From Massalongia carnosa (taxonomy: Eukaryota): a DNA stretch of 64,000 nucleotides. The notes beneath the pieces are model-generated. The model had not been told where the DNA came from. It was given only the letters and a program-made list of their open reading frames with translations, and ran no database searches. Below are positions 13,333 to 49,734 of the stretch, in pieces (position 1 is the stretch's first letter; every line of letters begins with the position of its first letter). The stretch covers positions 1,364,001 through 1,428,000 of the forward strand of contig OZ287074.1 in NCBI GenBank assembly GCA_965645245.1, given 5' to 3'. The position numbers and the translations under genes were made by a program.

Positions 13333-15920
<2,588 letters not shown>

Positions 15921-16034
15921 CTTTATAGTCAGCAAAGTCCCAAAATGCGTTTCTAAGAGAGGAAATCAAGAGCGCGGTCTCGCATTCGATAACTAAGAAA
16001 GCTGACTCATCAGCCCTATGCTTGATGTCACTTC

Positions 16035-16200
16035 TTGCCTCAGTACCTCAGACGTGCGTGGCTCAATGAGCCGGCTAAGCCCCTCCGGGTTAGCCTATTT
16101 TCGCTAAGCCCCTTCGGGTTAGCGTCGCTGCTGACTAACATCAGTGCGATAGCACGTCTGAGCGCAAAACTCAAAATTACGGCCAGATCCGCGTAATAAA
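16035..16200 (+). repeat. Left TIR and structured subterminal region of the AcademH-like element
   Basis: Matches the reverse complement of 21951-22040 over 90 bp, and matches the MITE end at 49053 for about 165 bp (to CGTAATAAA). Confidence 0.93.
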
Positions 16201-16533
16201 AATTTTAGCAGTGCAATCATTCCTTTTATGGATTTAATACAATGATTAGGGTCGTATTAGTTTACCAGAGACTGTATTTTATACCAAAAACGCACCTCTC
16301 AAGATGGATGACTCGATAATCATGTGTTATAACTACTGTCAGGCTAAGAAAAGCGATGTGAAAGTCGATTAAGTGATAAATTGTTCGCTTTCGCTCAATT
16401 TTGAGGTTGATGAACTGATTATTTTCATGTGGCGCGATTACATTGAGTTACAAAGATCATGATGATATGAATAACGACGGCCAATCAATGGTATTGTATG
16501 ATTTATCTAGATTGAAGCTATCTGACGAAAGCC

Positions 16534-19211
16534 ATGGCTCTTGTCGGGGGCCCCTCCTCGCCACTTACCGACCTACGGACAAGTCCCTTGACTCCCGCCG
16601 GTGCGCTCAAGCGGCCCCACCCATCGCCGTCAGGCAGTAATGATAGCTCACCCTCTTCCTCCTCCCCTCCTGCCTTACCTGAAAAAAATGGAGGCGCGAA
16701 ACGCCACCGGCGGCGCATATCAGATTACGACAAGCTGGTTGAGGTGCTTAAATTTCTGAGCTCTCTAAATTGGTCGGTAAAAGATTTTTTATCAACACTT
16801 TGTAAGAATCGAGCCCGTCATAGTATGCGAAAGGCGCAAGGCCAGCTCTTCGATTTTGTCTATGTCGATATTGTGCGGCAAGAAGACTTTTCAAGCCTCA
16901 TTGGGCCTGGTAGAATATCCACTATCCTTCGCGAGAGAGGATGGGTTTGGGCCGCGGATGTGCTTCGTGAAAGAATCAAAGCTTTGGCAGATCACGCAGC
17001 CTTTGGCCCTTTCCAGCCGCCCTCTGCGACAGTCGAGTTTGGGACCTTGGAGGCTATTAAACTTGCTGCATCTGCCGCCAAGCAGTTGGCGCCACGATGG
17101 CTTGAGCTAATTGATAGTGTTTGTCGCGAGGCTCGCCCGCAGGAACCTCTCGATGTGACGTTGGATTCTCCCAGTGGCCGGCACACCGTTATATTGGCAA
17201 TGCTTTGTCACAAATTGCGACCAAATAAGGCGACCAATATTCAGTCCGTCTTAGGCCTTTATATTTATCAAGGTGGGGCGAGGCGGCGAGTTCTAGATAC
17301 ACTCTGTCATTTTGACCTGACGATGTCATATACTACCCTGCAGCGGCGCATGTTGTCCTTGATTAAGGAGGCCGAACGAAAGGTTCAGATGCTAGGACAA
17401 GGCTCAAACATGATCTTGACATACGATAACTTTGACTTCGCAGAAGGTAAACGAGGAGAGCGCACGGGGGATAATAGAGACGTCAGATCAATCACTACCG
17501 CTCTAATTTTCCAGGGGCAAGGATTCGATGCCGGCGCTTTGAGGCAGGATATGTGGCGCCCCGCCACGCATCTTTTATCAGCTGAAAGAATTGCGCGAAA
17601 GCTGGAGACTGGTGATCTCGAGATGCAGGTGAGTTCAATACAGGACGAGGTGTATATACCGCGCTCAATCGCTAATGCACCGCGTACCTAGATTCGTCTT
17701 CATCATCTAGAGTCAGCGATTCGAGCGCTTTATGGCCCAGAGATCGGCGACGTTCAACTTCCTTGGTCGACTGCAATGCCCGTGCTGAATAAGATGAAAA
17801 AATACAAGACCAATTACATTCCTATCAAACCAGTCATGAAGGATGAGAGCACAACATCTAATAATATTCAAATATTGGAGGATATATTTGTGCGACAGTT
17901 CAAGTTCAAGGAGGATGACTCGACGTTTGCGAGCGTCATTCGGCTTATCTATGGTGACCTCAAGACATGGTCGAGAATGCAATCTGTCAAGGAATTACGT
18001 CGTGGGATATCGGAGCAATCTTTCGATCGGTTCGACTGGATTTTACCGGGATTAGGGTTATGGCATCTTCGCTTTAACATGCTGCAGCTTATTCATAAAA
18101 TACATTGGGGAGAGGCCCAGCCGGTTGATCCTTCGACTCTTCAATATGCCGCCGATCGGTGGGGCCGCGCTCGTGTCGTGCAGCCGAACGATTTCCAGGC
18201 CTTAGAGGATCTGATCATTCAGAGCTATCAAGCTAGAATCGTTGGGACGTGGATTAGGTTTTTACGAAAGGATGGATATCTCCGCAGCGAATCGAAGCAA
18301 CTATTTCGTGGCTCACAGCGCAGACTTGCGGGCAGGATGGCACCTGGATGAATATGTTGGGCAGGATATCTCGCAAACTTCACGCGGAATTACCCTCAAC
18401 GTCAATAGATATGCTTCCTCCAACGCTTGATCAACAATTTCAGAATCATCAGAACTTCTGTGATCACGTTGAATCGTATCTAACACTTCGATACGCAATC
18501 AAATATGCGGATATTGGACTACTTCGTCACGCATTGCGCCACGCAACGGTGATCTTTCAGGCAAGCGTAGCTGGCACCCCGAAATATGCGCAAGCTCTTC
18601 TATACACCCTTCATGCGATTGATTCTTCCGCAGCGACCATAAGGCTACAGGAAAGTATTTTAATGAATAGTCTTGTCAATTTACGCGGTGACGAAGAGTC
18701 GAGTTTTGAGACTGATCGGCTTTTAGAGATACTAAACAATAACCTCAAGACGTTCCAGCACGAGCGATCTTATTTTTCAAAGTATAGTGACACCTTGCTC
18801 GAGAACTGGGCACTCAACGGTCCATATCTTATGAAGCTCAAAGAAATCGTTGAGTTTTACTTTGGAAGAGTCAACTCTTCAAGGCATCCAGCAAAATCGG
18901 CCGCAGAGGATGTGTGGGGCATGGCTACGGCACTAGCGCATAAATCACTCTGTAAAAGAAGCTATGATCGATTTTCAACTAATCCAACAGCTAATCTTTA
19001 TGTTGAGGGATTGAAGAAACTTGGAGAAAATGTATTAAAATACAATCAGCAGTATCTTTCCGAAGAAATTTCAAAAGAAATTTCAACAGACGACCTTGAG
19101 GGTAAGTATGAAGCCGAGCCCGATTTTGTCAATGAAACAAAGCAGGTCCCCGACAGCCCTGTCATTTCAATGGCCCGTCTCGAGATATCCGGCGGTATGT
19201 TTTTTGATTAA
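16534..19211 (+). pseudogene. DUF6589/Academ-type putative DDE transposase, about 870 aa if corrected; intron 17629-17691; one apparent -1 frameshift between 18258 and 18349
   Basis: Motifs typical of fungal DUF6589 proteins: LGLYIY..GA.RRV.DTL...LTMSYTT, LTYDNFDF, IYGDLKT, LGLWHLRFNML..IHKIHWG, LR.AIK.ADIG, KYA, NSLVN..G and ETD.LLE.LNN. The intron GTGAGT...GCTAAT...TAG joins ORF 16534 to ORF 17776 in frame. Confidence 0.8.
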
Positions 19212-19270
19212 ATCATCGATACCACGAGATAGCCTAGTCATGTAAATCCGCGCCGCGCGGCTTTACAGAG

Positions 19271-21446
19271 TCAGAGGTAGCGGACGGGGCACTTTCTTTC
19301 TTGTCTAGATCGTGTCGGAGGAAGGGCCATGGGTACATTCAGCGACAACGCTTCCATAGGATCTCGAGGCGCTTTTTTGGTCTTTGATGCCTTCATCGAT
19401 GATTTAAGAGCATCAACATTGTCAACAACGAGCGCCGCATCGGAGATATTGTGATTAGGCGCAGGATTCTCGCCCGATGGCTCCGTGCTCTCGCTTTCCT
19501 TCGAGACTTTCTTCTTGACCGCATTTCGCTTTTTAAAAACCTTTCTCGACATATATCCTTGTTTGATCATCCAGTTTTTCCTCCGTTCCTCAAATTCAAT
19601 ACTGGCGGAGTTGCATGTTAGGCTGGGTAATCGTTTTCTCTTTATGTCGTTGTGTCGTTTCCATTCCTCGAACATGTCTCCCTCGTCTAATCTCATTGCT
19701 TGACCCCGCTTTAAAATTTCTAAAAGCTCGGCGCCGTAGGGCCTAATACCAGTCCATGTGTTACCAATCCATCGCCGCATGGTGGGCTCGTCCACAATCT
19801 GATCCGCCCAAGTGGTCAAAGAATTCAGTACCTCATCGGGCATTATCAATGATGGGAAGTATCGCATATGTGAATTTGGGAACTTTTCCTGCGCCTTGGC
19901 CTCCCTCCATTCTCGAAGTTTAAGGGTGAACCAAGGCCGCCTAGACGAGTCACGCTCGGCCGTTCTATTTAACATCTCATTGGCGGCTGTTGATGTCTGA
20001 AAACTTGGATCGCAAATTGAACAGCAAGGTTGCGGCTTAACATAGGCCGACGTTGGATACACTTTATCATTGAAGAAATTCAAGCCAATACCTCGAACGC
20101 AACCATCTGAAGGCACATTGATTATCTCCCAAAGACCCGGTGGCATATCTCGTCGCCGATCAGCATCCTTTTGATTGATGCGGCGTTTACTGGCCTTGGA
20201 TTCAATCTCGATTCCCGCGTCATATCCGTCCTGTTCGTCCATTTTTGATCCGCTTCTTGGACCCATGCACCAAGAAGGATGCAAAAGAGTAAAATGCGCC
20301 TGTCCTCGACCGCAACGCAAAGCACGACCTAAACGTTGGTATAGCTTCGCCATTGACGAGGGTAGCAGCCATTGCGTAACTCTCATAACGTCTGGATTAT
20401 CAATACCAAGCCCGTATGCATCCGTTGCGATCAGGATTCGAGGAAATTTACATTGATTCGAGGGCATTTCGAAGCGAGCCGCAATCCTTTCTTTGTCTTG
20501 GGTGGCCATGTCGGAAAAGAAAGGCGCGACCCAACTAGCAGCCTCAATTGGATAGGACAATTGATTCATCCATACTTTCATTAGCGCACACGCCTTTTTG
20601 ATAGATGAAATTGAATCCATGAAGATAATCGTTTTCGGAATATCAAAAGGACTCTCAGCCCGTGTTGGTAAAAGATGTTGAAGATCGATCATGCTGTTCA
20701 TAGGCCGCTGTAGACTGCTTGTCTGTATGTATATCTCTGGACGATCAAGCGCTGTTTGAATAACAGTACTTTCGTTATCAAAGCCACAGCGATCTTTAAC
20801 GCTCTCTAGGGTTCTTGGATCCAGCGTTGCAGACGCACCCAGAAAAGGAATACCATCTGGTAATCGTGTACGAAGCACACCGAGATTGAAGTATTCGGGC
20901 CGGAAATCTCGCCATTCGGATACAAGATGCATCTCATCAAGAGCTAAAAGACATAAATTCAAGAAGAAACTTGGATGCCTCAGAACCTCCTGATTAAACA
21001 GCTTTGACGTCGCTATCTCTGGGCTAGTAAAAACTATTCATATTAACGAGTAAGTTTTTATATTTATCTCAATCATAATTTGAATACACACCATGCGTAT
21101 AATTGTTTTCACGAATTAACTTTAAATTAGAAGAATTATTACTATCACCGTCCAACACGAAAGGCTTGCATCCCTCGATAACGCTCAATTTCTTGCACTG
21201 TTGAGCTTCTAAGGTCTTGAGAGGCATGATAATTAAAGCGATCTTAAGACAAGAGAACATTAATGGCATAGCTTGAAAGATAATACTCTTTCCAAATCCA
21301 GTCTTGGCGATAAATATCAGATCCTTTTGATCTTGTGCTAAAGTCATGATAGCGTCAACTTGCTCATTCTTTGGATAAAAGCCGAATTTACTTAAAATCA
21401 CGGTCGTCACCTGCTCGCGAGTTATCGACGCTATAGGATCGTCCAT
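19271..21446 (-). CDS. Transposon-encoded RecQ-like SF2 helicase (about 705 aa; intron 21034-21091)
   Basis: Walker A AKTGFGKS, splice-restored VFTSPEIA, DEMH plus aromatic loop WRDFRPEY, motif III SATL, motif V ATDAYGLGID, motif VI QRLGRALR, Cys cluster C..R...PCCSICDP, and an HRDC-like LREWRE...IMPDEVL segment. Confidence 0.92.
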
Positions 21447-21879
21447 TTCGATGTGTTCGCGAGCGATATTCGACGATTCGCGAGTTGGATTCTTAGCCCG
21501 CAAAACGCACATCAAGCAAGTTCATCACATTCAACGATTTTAGGCTTTCGAAAACAACGCTCGGAGGATCAGATTAATGATCAGAAGCGCCGACAATGAA
21601 AAACTGGAGCTAGTGACCCGTTGAGTCTGCTGTGGTGGTGTCGAAATTTCGAGTCAAAGTCGAGTCCTCGTCGCGAGATCGATATTGCGACTCAATTTTG
21701 CATCGATATGTAATTAAAATATTGATTAATCGATAGAATGTATATCAAAGCATCATTTCTATTATTACATAATTTATGAAATGTCGTTGCGCGTTGTTGA
21801 TTCCGCCGTCAGCTTGATTCTTGATGATTTTTGAGGTTAAGCCAAAAATTTGTATGAGCGCGCACCAAAATAAGCCGGA

Positions 21880-22040
21880 TCTGACAAAAATACAGAGTTT
21901 TGCGCTCAGACGTGCCGCCCGTAGCATGCGTAGTCAGTCAGCTAAAGGGCCGCTAACCCGAAGGGGCTTAGCGAAAATAGGCTAACCCGGAGGGGCTTAG
22001 CCGGCTCATAGAGCCACGCACGTCTGAGGTACTGAGGCAA
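21880..22040 (-). repeat. Right TIR and structured subterminal region of the AcademH-like element
   Basis: Reverse complement of the left end over 90 bp, followed by a divergent arm and the conserved GCACGTCTGAGCGCAAAACTC block. Confidence 0.93.
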
Positions 22041-22062
22041 GTCACTTCTGAAGCAAGACGAC

Positions 22063-43122: not shown

Positions 43123-44493
43123 TTGCCTCAGTACCTCAGACGTGCCCGACTAAGCCCCTTCGGGTTAGTCTTACAGAACGTTAAGCCCCTTCGGGTTAAC
43201 AGGCTGACTACGCAGCACATCTGTAGCAAGTCTGAGCTTGCCTCAGTACCTCAGACGTGCCCGGCTAAGCCCCTTCGGGTTAGCCTTACAGAACGTTAAG
43301 CCCCTTCGGGTTAACAGGCTGACTACGCAGCACATCTGTAGCAAGTCTGAGCCCAAAACTCAAGATTACGGTCAGATATGGCTTAACGATCATGACAAGA
43401 ACGATTTCGACCTTATAGTACAACGTCACAACTTCATTGTTTTCATGTTTGTAACGTCGTCGTCGCTTGATATGATCATGATCAATGTATTTTTGATTTT
43501 TTCGTTATAAATTTCAATCTTTATTTATGTTTATAACGTGCAGAGCAATTTTACATACATCTTGTTATTTTCGTTAAGTCGATTCTCGATTTCTATGCGA
43601 AGTGCAATCAGATTGCCCCACATGAACTTTACAACGAACAGGAATTTCAGAAAAATTTCTATACAAATTCTGCTTGAAGTCTTTCGAAGAAATAGCCCGT
43701 GTCAAACGAAAAAGCAAGACGTCAAAATGTCGAAAAATCGCAATAATACACGATTTATTACGAATATCTGACCGTAATATTTAGTTTTGCGCTCAGACGT
43801 GCTATCGCAGCCACGTTAGTCAGCTGGGACGCTAATCCGAAGGAGCTTAGCTAAATAGGCTAACCCGGAGGGGCTTAGACGGCTCCTAGAGCCACGCACG
43901 TCTGAGGTACTGAGGCAAGTCTGAGCCCAAAACTCAAGATTACGGTCAGATATGGCTTAACGATCATGACAAGAACGATTTCGACCTTATAGTAAAACGT
44001 CACAACTTCATTGTTTTCATGTTTGTAACGTCGTCGTCGCTTGATATGATCATGATCAATGTATTTTTGAATTTTTCGTTATAAATTTCAATATTTATTT
44101 ATGTTTATAACGTGCAGAGCAATTTTACATACATCTTGTTATTTTCGTTAAGTCGATTCTCGATTTCTATGCGAAGTGCAATCAGATTGCCCCACATGAA
44201 CTTTACAACGAACAGGAATTTCAGAAAACTTTCTATACAAATTCTACTTGAATTCTTTCGAAGAAATAGCCCGTGTCAAACGAAAAAGCAAGACGTCAAA
44301 ATGTCGAAAATTTGCAATAATACACGATTTATTACGAATATCTGACCGTAATATTTAGTTTTGCGCTCAGACGTGCTATCGCAGCCACGTTAGTCAGCTG
44401 GGACGCTAATCCGAAGGAGCTTAGCGAAATAGGCTAACCCGGAGGGGCTTAGACGGCTCCTAGAGCCCACGCACGTCTGAGGTACTGAGGCAA
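43123..44493 (+). mobile_element. Non-autonomous MITE of the AcademH-like family (outer copy, 682 bp once the nested copy is removed)
   Basis: TTGCCTCAGTACCTCAGACGTGC...GCACGTCTGAGGTACTGAGGCAA termini. TSD TAAGATGA at 43115-43122 and 44494-44501. Confidence 0.93.
43238..43918 (+). mobile_element. Nested MITE copy (681 bp) inserted in the outer copy
   Basis: Has its own complete termini and TSD GTCTGAGC (43230-43237 and 43919-43926). About 12 differences from the outer copy. Confidence 0.9.
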
Positions 44494-44759
44494 TAAGATG
44501 ATGGTGGGGGGTCGTTGATTAGTCAGCGACGGCCCTTCAATCGATAACGTCAACAAGGGCCACGTGATCACTTGCATTGAAAGCAAAAGTCTCAAAACAT
44601 GCTAGTACGTTACTTAAGCTAAACATCACGTGTCTCCATCACTCGTTAATGAAAATGCCTATGCCCGGATAGGTATCTATTGGTGACGTCGATTCAATAC
44701 ACCACAATGCTATTACGAATGAAACGGAGATCGGGACTGCTGAAACTGATTATGCAGCC

Positions 44760-46067
44760 ATGGAGGTGATCGTCAATGCAATGGAAAACGAAACAGAAAG
44801 CCTCCCTTTACCGCTAAGTCCAAATCATGAAGCTAGAGTTTCAGCGTTGATGGATGCTCTTGCCAATGAAGAAGACGAAGACGAAGACGATGAAGTGGAT
44901 GATGGACTGGGGAAAGTGGTGGTGGAATACGACATGTACCTGAACAATCCTAGCAAACGACTTCTGCTTCTACAATACCCCAATCGAGAGCCTGGTCAAT
45001 CCTACAGCGATAAAACTGGAAACAAACCTCTAGAGTTGCGTATCAAACCTAAATGTGGTCTTGTGGAGGTTGATATCCCATTGAGCGTCCATGCCAATTT
45101 CGACAGGCACAAGGGCATAAACTTTGGGGCGGCAATGCGGAAGAGCCAAACCCTACAAGAAGGCGGTTCTTATGGGCTGTCTGGAGGGTTAAAGACTGCT
45201 GTTGGGCTTGGACCTGGACCGAGGGGTCAGCCTAGAAACAATGACCAAGAATCCGCACTAGAGGATGTTTCGCAGGACATGCTGCTAGACAACTTCGAAG
45301 AAGCAAATCAAAAAGGACACATTATGAACAAAATCATTCTCGGTGGCCAGATTGTCCCTTGGAAAGATGGGGATCCGATCTACATGATAGGAGTATTCCG
45401 AGGAAGTGAGCAAGCACCTTTTCGTCGACTAGCGTGTTCACGTGTCCTGTTCCTACGATAATGACACCCAAGGCAGACAAAGTATTTCTCAGCAAACTGG
45501 ACGCAATGGTTCAACTCCGACCACAGTTCAACCATTTAGATGCGCTAGGCGATCTAGACAAACAAGCCGTGAACCCCCGATCTAGAGGAGGCGCAGAAGA
45601 CGCTGCCGAAGAGCCGCAAGCAAGGGCTGTCAACATGACTGTCAAATCGACCGAGGTGGACGATATGGACGGGTATGGAGATACGAGTGAAACTGCCCGG
45701 CTGTTGAAAGCTATGCGAGAAGAACCATGGCAGCGTTTGGGCTGGATTGATTCCGAAGTGCGGTGTTCTTTTTCAATAGTGCAACAATGAAAGCTAACAC
45801 TCGCAGGACGACCATTCATACAGGATCTTCAACGATGAATTATTCATCCAAGACCCAGAGGCCGCGCCAACGCTGGTATCTACAATGACCGATGAGCAAT
45901 GGTTGGACGCTATCAGCTGTCCTCGCGTAGACCCCATCAATCAAGGCAAGAAGGTTATGAGACGGCTAAATATGGACAGTGATTTCTCTGATGATGACGA
46001 TGAGGATAAAAATCACAAGGGGCGAAGAGGTGCTAAAGGTGACCAATCCGATCAGGATAATGAATAG
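44760..46067 (+). CDS. RPC37: RNA polymerase III subunit Rpc5/C37 (Sin-like), 3 exons; start uncertain
   Basis: VVVEYDMYL, LLLLQYPNR, RIKPKCGLVEVDIPL, YMIGVFRG and VQLRPQFNHLD. Confidence 0.8.
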
Positions 46068-46755
46068 TATCTATGATCACGGATAATCTTGAAGCCGCCG
46101 CCAGGTCCAAGACGTGCAATGAGTTTACGCCCTCGCAAAACCGTACGCTCCGTTATTGTTTGCTATTTAATGGCATAGCGATAGGTGTTTGGAAGATTCT
46201 GAGATACCCATAGATCGCATGTAAAACAAGTACCATCCGATCTCGGAGGTGCAAGTAAGGAAGCTTAGCTTTGAAGGATATAATCACGTCTACAGGCAGG
46301 CCCTTTTCTGCTCGAGATTTTCAAGCCCCAGAATTGATTTGTTGAGACTGCAGCTCTCTAATCACTGAAAACGAGTACATACCGATCATGGCTCAACTTT
46401 CTCTATTTCGATATTGTATCATTATAGCCAGAAAGCATACCAAGCCTAATTTGATAGCGAGCTAGATCCAAAGCAGTATAACTGCTGCTGACAAATCAAG
46501 TTTATCCTTGCTTGATAGGATAAACTAGTATGCCCGTTGATTTACAATGTACCATTTGGTAATAGTGCGGATTTGTGTATCAGGATAAACTCTTTGTAAC
46601 AATTTGCACCGTACAATAGAGTACTTCGTACGTAAATCAGCCGTTTTTAATACTGCGCTATGCATCGACGCTAACTAGCCGAGTCGCTGTCATGCAGCAG
46701 CCACTGCCGCGTCGGGATGACGAAGTCCCGATGTCCAAGTTAATCGCGAATAACT

Positions 46756-48328
46756 ATGTCTCTGCCAGGTCTTCAGCTAAACGCACCCACAGAGCCTGTG
46801 CTGGCAACAACATTTCATGATATAGCAGAAAATACCGAATGGAGGTTTGAAGCCGCGTTTGGCTACAAAATTGAAGTCAAGGTGGGTCAATTGGACTTGG
46901 CGCGTATCCTTCGGAAGCCTTTAAAAGACGCTAATTTGGTTGCGGGATCTGCGCAGCTTCTTACCGGAGATGCTGAGCTCTTTGGGACCGAGTTGGCACC
47001 AAAGCAAACATACACCTTCACTGGCACCAAGGCAGCAATATACACCTGGCATGGGTGTCGAATCGAGGTGGTGGGCGAATGCCAAGCCGAGTATCTCGCT
47101 GAAGAGACCCCCATGACGAGCTACGCAAACCTGCATTTTGGACTGGAGCGGCTACGCAGTCTGGTCACTGCTGATGGGGCTGATGGTCCTAGGGTGCTGC
47201 TCTTGGGCCCGGAGAATGCTGGGAAAACAAGTCTGGCCAAGCTTCTGACCGCATACGCGACGAAAGCGGGTCGAGAGCCTGTGACGGTAAATCTTGATAC
47301 AAAGGAAGGCATGCTAAGCATACCAGGAACCTTGACTGCAGCATCTTTCTCGTCTATTGTTGATGTTGAACAAGGCTGGGGAACCGGCCCTACTAGCGGA
47401 CCTAGCCAAGTCCCCGTCAAATTGCCCCTCGTCTACTTCTACGGCATGGCAAATCCAGAGGAAAATGCGCCTCTTTACAAAGCAATTGTTACCCGGCTAG
47501 CTGTATCCGTTGTGAGCAGATTGCAGGATGAGCAGGGAGCAAAGGAGGCTGGCTGCATCATCGACACGCCAGGGATTATTAGCCAGGGGAAAGGAGGCTA
47601 CGACGTGATTCAGCATATCGTTTCTGAGTTTTCAGGTTAGTATCTCGGTCTTGAGAGCTGAACTAGAAGGTTTTTTGCTAAGCTTTATGATCTACAGTCA
47701 ACCTATTAGTAATCATCGGCTCTGAGCGACTGTATAGTGATATGCTACGGCGATATAATGGGCATAGCACTGGCGGTGGGGAGCCTATAACAATCGTCAA
47801 ATTGGACAAGTCCGGGGGATGCGTAGATCGAGATGATGGCTACATGCGGCAGTTTCGCCAGGCCCAAGTTCGTGAATATTTCTTTGGTGATGCCAAGAAC
47901 GACCTCAGCCCGCATACCCAACAACTCGACTTTAGTCAGCTCAATATCTACAAAATCGCCGAAAGTGAGTGGTACATGTCACCTTTTTTTTTCCCGCCAT
48001 CAATGCTAAACCTTTCCTCCTAGCCTCGACGCCTTCCACGTCGCTGCTCCCCGGAGGAGACGTAGAAGAGCCATCGGGACCTCCAATCTTCAACAAGGTG
48101 CCTCCTTCGCCCCAAATGCAGAACTCCATCCTCGCCCTCGTCCAAGCAAATCCAAACGACAACCAAGAAGCTATCCGGGATGCGAGCGTCGTAGGCTTTA
48201 TCTACGTGGCGGAAGTAGATGAAAAGAAAAAGAAGGTGAAAATTCTCGCCCCCATGAGCGGCCGATTGCCGGTCAAAGCGATGATCTGGGGCTCGTGGCC
48301 AGAAGACGTCGGGAGTTTGGTGGATTGA
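46756..48328 (+). CDS. CLP1: mRNA cleavage and polyadenylation factor Clp1, multi-exon
   Basis: EWRFE, GDAELFGTELA, AAIYTWHGC, P-loop GPENAGKTS, GCIIDTPG and KLDKSGGCVDRD. Confidence 0.94.
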
Positions 48329-49052: not shown

Positions 49053-49734
49053 TTGCCTCAGTACCTCAGACGTGCGTGGGCTCTAGGAGCCGTCTAAGCC
49101 CCTCCGGGTTAGCCTATTTCGCTAAGCTCCTTCGGATTAGCGTCCCAGCTGACTAACGTGGCTGCGATAGCACGTCTGAGCGCAAAACTAAATATTACGG
49201 TCAGATATTCGTAATAAATCGTGTATTATTGCAAATTTTCGACATTTTGACGTCTTGCTTTTTCGTTTGACACGGGCTATTTCTTCGAAAGAATTCAAGT
49301 AGAATTTGTATAGAAAGTTTTCTGAAATTCCTGTTCGTTGTAAAGTTCATGTGGGGCAATCTGATTGCACTTCGCATAGAAATCGAGAATCGACTTAACG
49401 AAAATAACAAGATGTATGTAAAATTGCTCTGCACGTTATAAACATAAATAAATATTGAAATTTATAACGAAAAATTCAAAAATACATTGATCATGATCAT
49501 ATCAAGCGACGACGACGTTACAAACATGAAAACAATGAAGTTGTGACGTTTTACTATAAGGTCGAAATCGTTCTTGTCATGATCGTTAAGCCATATCTGA
49601 CCGTAATCTTGAGTTTTGGGCTCAGACTTGCTACAGATGTGCTGCGTAGTCAGCCTGTTAACCCGAAGGGGCTTAACGTTCTGTAAGACTAACCCGAAGG
49701 GGCTTAGTCGGGCACGTCTGAGGTACTGAGGCAA
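49053..49734 (-). mobile_element. MITE copy (682 bp), inverted relative to the 43-44 kb copies
   Basis: Same termini. TSD CGGTGGAC at 49045-49052 and 49735-49742. Shares the diagnostic variants of the reconstituted outer copy. Confidence 0.94.

Follow-up and report, generated by a model that had tools for sequence, protein, structure and literature searches.

Multi-arm palindromic ends in a family of helicase-encoding transposons hint at reading in a folded form

The ends of the transposon family described here are built as multi-arm palindromes, and this architecture is kept across 22 subfamilies despite changes in the sequence of the arms, in their number and in the spacing of the repeat that closes them (P1). 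Such palindromic ends hint that recognition involves a folded form and not the ordinary double helix. The account that we put forward, tentatively and with less than even confidence, is that the ends serve as a folded or cruciform-prone scaffold that presents sequence motifs, possibly after unwinding by a helicase. A sequence-only reading of the window (the whole stretch of 64,000 nucleotides that was analysed) had proposed that the RecQ-like helicase of the element unwinds its ends so that a folded single strand of DNA or RNA is recognised. The palindromic architecture on which that proposal was built withstood the comparison across the family, but no signal was found for its strand-specific part, reading as ssDNA or RNA.

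The autonomous element of the window, E1, is flanked by the 8-bp TSD GTCACTTC at 16027-16034 and 22041-22048, and its TIRs are 96 nt long and 97% matched (Table 1). DUF6589 and SF2 helicase domains are the only Pfam domains in E1. The former was matched on two ORF pieces of the putative transposase gene (E = 2e-35 and 2.7e-24), and the in-frame stop at 17689 falls within a 62-nt intron (17629-17690) carrying GTGAGT...GCTAAT...TAG signals. As the stop sits in a canonical intron and the spliced reading agrees with relatives, the E1 transposase may be intact. A gene model, P0001 (478 aa, in a cluster of 72 members), begins downstream of the transposase intron and probably lacks the N-terminal half of the protein. 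Pfam DUF6589 is the only match of the transposase, a profile of 40 relatives found no solved relative, and its protein relatives (PF20231) come from lichen-forming fungi. Sequencing runs under four organism labels as well as a lichen metagenome contain 0.71-0.93 of the sampled E1 words, which suggests either one fungus present across several lichen samples or a recent spread. The second gene does encode a RecQ-like helicase, as had been claimed: the best solved relatives of its product are E. coli RecQ, WRN, RECQ5 and RECQ1 (E = 9e-17 to 1e-12).

Table 1. Features of E1, of its ends and of the three MITEs, in coordinates of the window
Feature	Position	Strand	Remarks
E1, autonomous element, 6006 bp	16035..22040	+	TIRs; 8-bp TSD
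Left-end terminal 12 nt, TTGCCTCAGTAC	16035..16046	+	CTCAG directly repeated with start of P1
P1 5' arm, CTCAGACGTGC	16047..16057	+	closing stem; 11-bp inverted repeat
Arm 1, GGCTC-aat-GAGCC	16060..16072	+	DNA fold
Arm 2, unit hairpin GGCTAAGCCCCTCCGGGTTAGCC	16073..16095	+	DNA fold
Arm 3, unit hairpin CGCTAAGCCCCTTCGGGTTAGCG	16102..16124	+	DNA fold
Arm 4, TCGC/GCGA and GCTGA/TCAGT	16125..16149	+	DNA fold
P1 3' arm GCACGTCTGAG (16152-16162), then CGCAAAAC	16152..16170	+	inverted pseudo-terminus
Putative transposase gene, Pfam DUF6589	16516..19211	+	reads inward
RecQ-like SF2 helicase gene, DEAD and Helicase_C	19271..21521	-	inward from right end
E1 right end, same architecture	21905..22040	-	P1 arms 22018-22028 and 21905-21915
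MITE M3, outer copy split by M2	43123..44493	+	TSD TAAGATGA
MITE M2, 681 bp	43238..43918	+	inserted in M3; TSD GTCTGAGC (43230-43237, 43919-43926)
MITE M1, 682 bp	49053..49734	+	TSD CGGTGGAC

At the left end of E1, the unconstrained minimum-energy DNA fold of 16047-16162 consists of the closing stem and four arms (-35.2 kcal/mol; z -7.13; 0/200 dinucleotide shuffles as good), and every stem named in the sequence-only reading was recovered there. TTGC of the terminal 12 nt can additionally pair with GCAA at 16164-16167, and arm 4 bears a TGACTAA motif (16132-16138) that is found family-wide and lies here 21 nt 5' of the P1 3' arm. Arms 1-3 of the right end match those of the left end, and the fourth arm (21917-21950) is rebuilt from other sequence. 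Over their first 90 nt, the E1 TIRs differ at a single position, in the loop of arm 1 (aat/tat), exactly as had been described. An occurrence of TTGCCTCAG at 15552 was set aside as a chance match.

Together with the three MITEs, E1 provides eight ends in the window, all of which fold in the same manner. The stem variants listed earlier for them, GGCTAA/TTAGCC, CGCTAA/TTAGCG, GACTAA/TTAGTC and GTTAA/TTAAC as well as CCC/GGG versus TCC/GGA, are all present. The further claim that pairing is kept across these ends holds for most stems, but three mismatches are uncompensated, namely a T-C in arm 2 of the type-1 end of the MITEs, an A-G in arm 3 of M2 and a C-A at the base of arm 3 in the type-2 end. 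With MITEs that match one another at 98-100%, the eight ends count as about four independent sequences.

M1, M2 and M3 are classed as MITEs on their length (681-682 bp), non-coding nature, E1-type TIRs and 8-bp TSDs. The left end of M1 is of type 1 (E1-like), and its right end is of type 2, which lacks arm 1 and carries GACTAA and GTTAA arms. M2 is inserted inside the P1 3' arm, i.e., the closing stem, of M3, and this nesting accounts for an apparent 115-nt tandem repeat. The copies at 43123-44493 and 49053-49734 stand in inverted orientation (584-656-nt arms, 98-100% matched) and bracket a 4.5-kb host segment with an RPC5-like gene (44673-45790) and a CLP1-like gene (46744-48328); such a pair could promote inversion of the segment or composite movement. 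At one related locus (L010), another end adjoins a second copy. Contigs of four sequencing runs were also aligned to M1. In the run that gave 325 contigs, the summed depth was many times greater over the end regions than over the MITE interior. The majority letter at 49093 was G (70% and 64% of the depth in two runs), which restores a G-C pair broken in the MITEs of the window. The changes 49128 T>C and 49136 A>G, which derive from E1-type ends, appeared at identical depths in three runs and are thus linked; among the other differences listed between the run contigs and M1, 49086 G>T is a loop variant, and 49688 A>G, whose pairing partner is position 49708, is a majority change.

Relatives of these ends were collected by scanning metagenome contigs with the terminal 22-mer, which yielded at least 118 loci under 16 accession prefixes; the same tip 22-mer had no match in bacterial and archaeal genomes. 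Among the matches listed, the related loci contributed 131 ends, or 139 with those of the window, and 111 of them were unique over 150 nt. Downstream of the tip, the P1 3' arm CACGTCTGAG was found with at most two mismatches in 93 of these 111 ends, among the matches listed (41 exact, 48 with one mismatch and four with two), against a chance estimate of ~10. The remaining 18, without a 3' arm, are ends that have been truncated or have mutated heavily. Between the two P1 arms, the interior measures 26-171 nt, again among the matches listed, and shows no preferred helical phase. Of 92 ends, 80 had a length below 150 nt and were clustered, which gave 22 subfamilies. At four loci the start of a helicase gene adjoins the end, and the identity to the E1 helicase is only 38-63%, so that the subfamilies span real divergence. 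TSDs of 8 bp, varied in sequence, flank all four elements of the window and occur in six of nine paired ends at related loci; one further pair has a TSD with one mismatch, and two pairs have none. Tiny MITEs of 174-206 bp with 8-bp TSDs were seen at no fewer than four loci (at least L016:334-539, L041:1001-1180, L047 and L071), each made of two ends that abut and lack the internal pseudo-terminus, together forming one long imperfect palindrome.

Of the 20 subfamily representatives that were folded from arm to arm, 17 reached z <= -3.5, at most two of 200 shuffles doing as well in each case, and weak folds were confined to three representatives (L020, -1.05; L022, -1.73; L050, -1.94). Even when the closing stem was left out, the interiors had a mean z of -2.0, and 36% fell below -2, compared with 2.6% of control segments of the same length located just inside the end. 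The spacer that precedes the unit hairpin beat its shuffles in eight of 18 representatives (Fisher combined p 6.6e-10, the representatives being partly related). The number of arms varies from none (L050, 26-nt interior) to four or more, and many stems are just 4-6 bp long. In arm A, unrelated self-complementary sequences occupy the same place, for instance GGCCAG/CTGGCC, CCGG/CCGG, ATGGC/GCCAT, GGCTC/GAGCC, AAGCCA/TGGCTT and CGCTAA/TTAGCG. Arms B and C are kept mainly as sequence. The GCTAA/TTAGC half-sites are spaced by 3, 11 or 12 nt, by which the stem is left unchanged but a duplex site is not. In 80 P1-bounded interiors, the core of the unit hairpin was found 42 times in the forward orientation and never in reverse, so there is no flip-flop of this unit. 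Searches of the ends for Rfam families and for tRNAs gave no match.

Compensatory change was assessed at two scales. For the 28 distinct ends of one subfamily (cluster 9), the structure was drawn by hand, as the RNAalifold consensus mis-drew the interior. The proportion of paired cells was 92.7% (91.4% in shuffled alignments), 16 cells were changed on both sides (5.2 shuffled) and the covariation score was 0.118 (0.092 shuffled), and none of 500 shuffles reached any of the three values. A covariance model made from this cluster aligned 134 ends, of which 114 were distinct and 92 had the exact tip, after 18 loci with ends lacking P1 and four overlapping duplicate loci were excluded. In the 114 distinct ends, 89.9% of the cells were paired (82.6% shuffled), 18 of 30 pairs had double changes (shuffled mean 14.0), and double-change cells numbered 216 (68.7 shuffled), values to be read with the caveat that this large alignment was fitted to the structure, that the sequences are related and that all of them were fished with one tip 22-mer. 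The covariation score of 0.179 exceeded that of shuffled alignments (0.092) and of slid partners (0.014-0.049), and again 0/500 shuffles reached any value. The covariation expected from the sequence-only reading in a larger set of ends was borne out against both kinds of control. Just past the fished 22-mer, the pair at position 23 is C-G, T-A or A-T and that at position 24 is C-G or T-A, depending on the subfamily, and this variation is also present in GC-rich copies without RIP mutation.

Besides the pairing, a part of each end is fixed as sequence. Each end of the family can be divided into a 24-nt tip, a variable cassette of 0-4 short hairpins and a fixed inner module, TGACTAC-N(14-15)-CACGTCTGAG-CGCAA. 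The 3' arm and the letters that follow it, GCACGTCTGAG-C-GCAA, are the inverse of the tip, GCACGTCTGAG-GTACTGAG-GCAA, minus one CTGAGGTA unit; every end thus holds a tip and an inverted pseudo-tip, and the latter was used as an element end in 0/106 ends. The motif (GC)TGACTA(C/A) lies 21-22 nt 5' of the P1 3' arm in 65 of the 71 motif-bearing ends among the matches listed, and at 13, 14, 25, 25, 26 and 26 nt in the other six. Most of the 22 representatives have it at -22; three variant forms place it at -21 or -23, and three representatives lack it. The 13-15 nt between the motif and the 3' arm vary in sequence, as do the stem length of arm C and the length of the interior (26-104 nt). On the sequences at hand, the spacing from TGACTA to the 3' arm is constrained linearly, to about two helical turns, and is explained more simply by a duplex bipartite site. 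Some variants of the motif read TGACTCA or TGACTAA, which are AP-1/Gcn4/Yap-type sites, so the module could double as a promoter of the two genes that face inward. Two constraints are combined in these ends: (i) pairing is kept under changing sequence in the extension of P1 and in the stems of arms A and C, and with a cassette of variable length, and (ii) sequence and spacing are kept in the tip, in the unit GCTAAGCCCCTTCGGGTTAGC and in TGACTA-N-3' arm. Given both, the simplest account would be a fold within the strand, or an extrusion upon opening of the duplex, that displays fixed motifs.

The two strands of the ends turned out to fold alike. The complementary strand of 16047-16162 folds as DNA with z -7.31, and the bottom strand is the more stable one in 54 of 92 interiors. 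It had been claimed that G-T pairs form only on the strand that starts with 5'-TTGCC. This impression goes back to a pair of neighbouring wobbles in a single arm and is not borne out in the wider family, in which we counted 158 G·T versus 146 A·C stem cells in the model alignment, and 85 versus 96 in the cluster alignments, the latter count being made on clusters with at least three sequences other than cluster 3, which comprises the tiny palindromic MITEs. An excess of G·T in arm A alone (52 versus 8) is mostly one inherited wobble, and C·A mismatches that are shared subfamily-wide exist too (GCCAAG...TTAGCG). Among 1x1 mismatches in no-GU folds of interiors of up to 110 nt, there were just two G·T and four A·C cells. 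As both strands fold equally well and G·T cells are about as frequent as A·C cells, the ends give no signal in favour of one particular strand, as ssDNA or RNA, and none that tells RNA from DNA, and the idea that a folded strand of one or the other kind is recognised is not supported in that form.

The most serious competitor of a folded scaffold is an array of duplex sites, which we regard as possible but doubtful. The palindromes and the pseudo-terminus would then be sites that transposase domains bind as dsDNA, with dimers on the quasi-palindromes and the tip site present once more in inverted orientation, no folding would take place, and the helicase would serve, e.g., repair or chromatin access. 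The commonest arms, GCTAAGCCCCTTCGGGTTAGC and GCTGACTACGCAGC, are indeed kept as sequence, and so is the distance of about two turns between TGACTA and the 3' arm. The parity of G·T and A·C fits as well, covariation of inverted copies is expected if both copies bind one protein, and the TIRs and 8-bp TSDs of E1, which speak against folding, resemble those of duplex cut-and-paste elements. There are solid precedents in the duplex-bound palindromes of piggyBac (PMC7351741) and Hermes (PMC10368747). Nevertheless, arm A is swapped for unrelated self-complementary sequences where the tip stays identical, the spacing of the GCTAA/TTAGC half-sites varies, and positions 23-24 differ among the subfamilies but remain complementary. 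The pseudo-terminus, moreover, never acts as an end. The unphased separation of the P1 copies is a poor fit to two duplex sites on one rigid protein, but would be immaterial in a fold.

A bolder version of folding, which we consider unlikely, is that the unwound strands fold back on themselves. The tip would pair with the pseudo-tip, a duplex site for the transposase would be rebuilt and the hairpin cassette looped out, and TIR/TSD transposition in a eukaryote would become helicase-dependent, partly single-stranded and perhaps replicative. The strand ending in ...GGCAA-3' would have a paired 3' end (9 bp with one bulge) that could prime synthesis.

There is at best a slim chance that the fold acts at the RNA level, either as a 5' leader that controls how stable the transcripts are or how they are translated, or as a precursor of small RNAs. 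The inward direction of both genes, which makes the structured 5'-TTGCC strand the sense one, fits this idea, and so does the strong RNA fold of the left end (-62.5 kcal/mol; z -6.5). The antisense strand, however, folds better (-68.0 kcal/mol), G·U-type pairs are not in excess over A·C, the ends have no Rfam match, and gene-less MITEs, down to the tiny ones of 174-206 bp, retain the architecture.

Many of the related copies (among L001-L118; e.g., L028:1688-1800, L085 and L068) show dense C-to-T and G-to-A changes at CpA/TpG, which we read from their sequence context as the signature of RIP in these fungal assemblies. For example, GCTGACT is changed to GCTAACT, and of the 113 distinct ends that have letters at the pair in question, 50 show GTCTAAG in place of GTCTGAG. 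Such CpA-to-TpA changes strike mirrored positions of a palindrome alike and hence mimic compensation. RIP cannot produce transversions, and a tally of the pair-type table assigned ~120 of the 216 double-change cells to transition pairs and ~90 to pairs involving transversions. That the ends are a functionless by-product of tip duplication, RIP at mirrored sites and template switching by which quasi-palindromes are perfected is improbable: RIP-like transitions are common and fall symmetrically, transition pairs make up more than half of the double changes and the pseudo-terminus resembles a duplicated tip, but the architecture is kept in 22 subfamilies whose helicases are so divergent, the double changes of transversion type stand against it, and copies lose pairing after insertion without gaining any.

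Returning to the folded or cruciform-prone scaffold, we envisage selection on the cassette and on the tip/pseudo-tip repeat (P1) for within-strand pairing at some step of transposition. The subterminal 60-140 bp would be opened, most plausibly by the RecQ-like helicase of the element itself, and each of the opened strands would snap into a closed multi-arm fold. RecQ-family helicases act on branched and folded DNA. The fold would loop out the variable cassette, restore the tip sequence in duplex form and set the tip beside the inner module regardless of the cassette length, and the transposase would read the motifs displayed on this scaffold, i.e., tip/P1, the GCTAA stem and the TGACTA loop. 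We infer all three of folding in vivo, the helicase as its cause and the need of the transposase for it.

A helicase-encoding TIR family with ends conserved in structure makes the role of transposon-encoded helicases, such as those of AcademH and KolobokH, testable. If folding is required, cut-and-paste elements would be linked to the single-strand transposons that read hairpins and to parvoviral termini; if it is not, the family would represent a well-defined multi-site duplex end in a poorly studied superfamily. The fold-back version, if true, would account for the presence of helicases or structure-specific nucleases in some DDE-type superfamilies.

Among known systems, IS200/IS605, IS91 and Helitron elements have subterminal hairpins that are conserved as structure, and Helitrons encode a helicase; these elements use HUH nucleases acting on one defined strand and have neither TIRs nor TSDs. 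The hairpins of the E1 family are likewise conserved, but without a visible strand preference, and E1 was rejected as an HUH or single-strand transposon of the IS200/IS605 or Helitron kind, as it has no HUH domain in Pfam and possesses a 96-nt TIR and 8-bp TSDs. In the ITR of parvoviruses such as AAV, a closing stem encloses internal palindromes in a T-shaped or multi-arm form, a short unpaired stretch adjoins it, and a helicase-bearing protein acts on it. The parvoviral hairpin forms the extreme end of a linear ssDNA genome and is found in both a flip and a flop orientation, whereas 12 nt lie outside the stem in E1 and the orientation of the unit is fixed. The attC site of integrons owes its identity to the fold of a single strand, variable in sequence and with conserved bulged bases, and a bacterial tyrosine recombinase uses only one strand of it; in the E1 family, neither a tyrosine recombinase nor a strand preference was seen.

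With respect to TIR elements, E1 looks like AcademH, the helicase-encoding lineage of Academ (Kojima 2020; PMC10045372, PMC10799480), by gene content, its transposase being placed in Pfam DUF6589 only. The likeness covers a TIR element with large transposase and SF2 helicase genes, a fungal host and a low to moderate copy number, and the difference lies in the TSD, which is 8 bp in the E1 family but is reported to be 9 or 10 bp in AcademH (PMC10045372). No description of structured ends in helicase-encoding TIR elements was found in the literature searched, supplements and the primary AcademH paper aside. Membership in the piggyBac superfamily was rejected, as the TSDs are 8 bp and varied, not TTAA. 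A 19-bp palindromic internal repeat of piggyBac is bound as a duplex by a CRD dimer (PMC7351741), the STR1-STR2 quasi-palindrome of Hermes is bound by two BED domains (PMC10368747), and a preprint speculates that palindromic piggyBac-like repeats form a hairpin or cruciform (PMC12324416). The E1 family shares with piggyBac and Hermes quasi-palindromes just inside the TIR at both ends that are conserved in sequence, and in those two systems they are needed in cis. Theirs are, however, single duplex-bound sites of 17-19 bp, whereas the E1 family has a 10-12-bp repeat spanning 26-171 nt, encloses up to four hairpins of changeable sequence and encodes a helicase.
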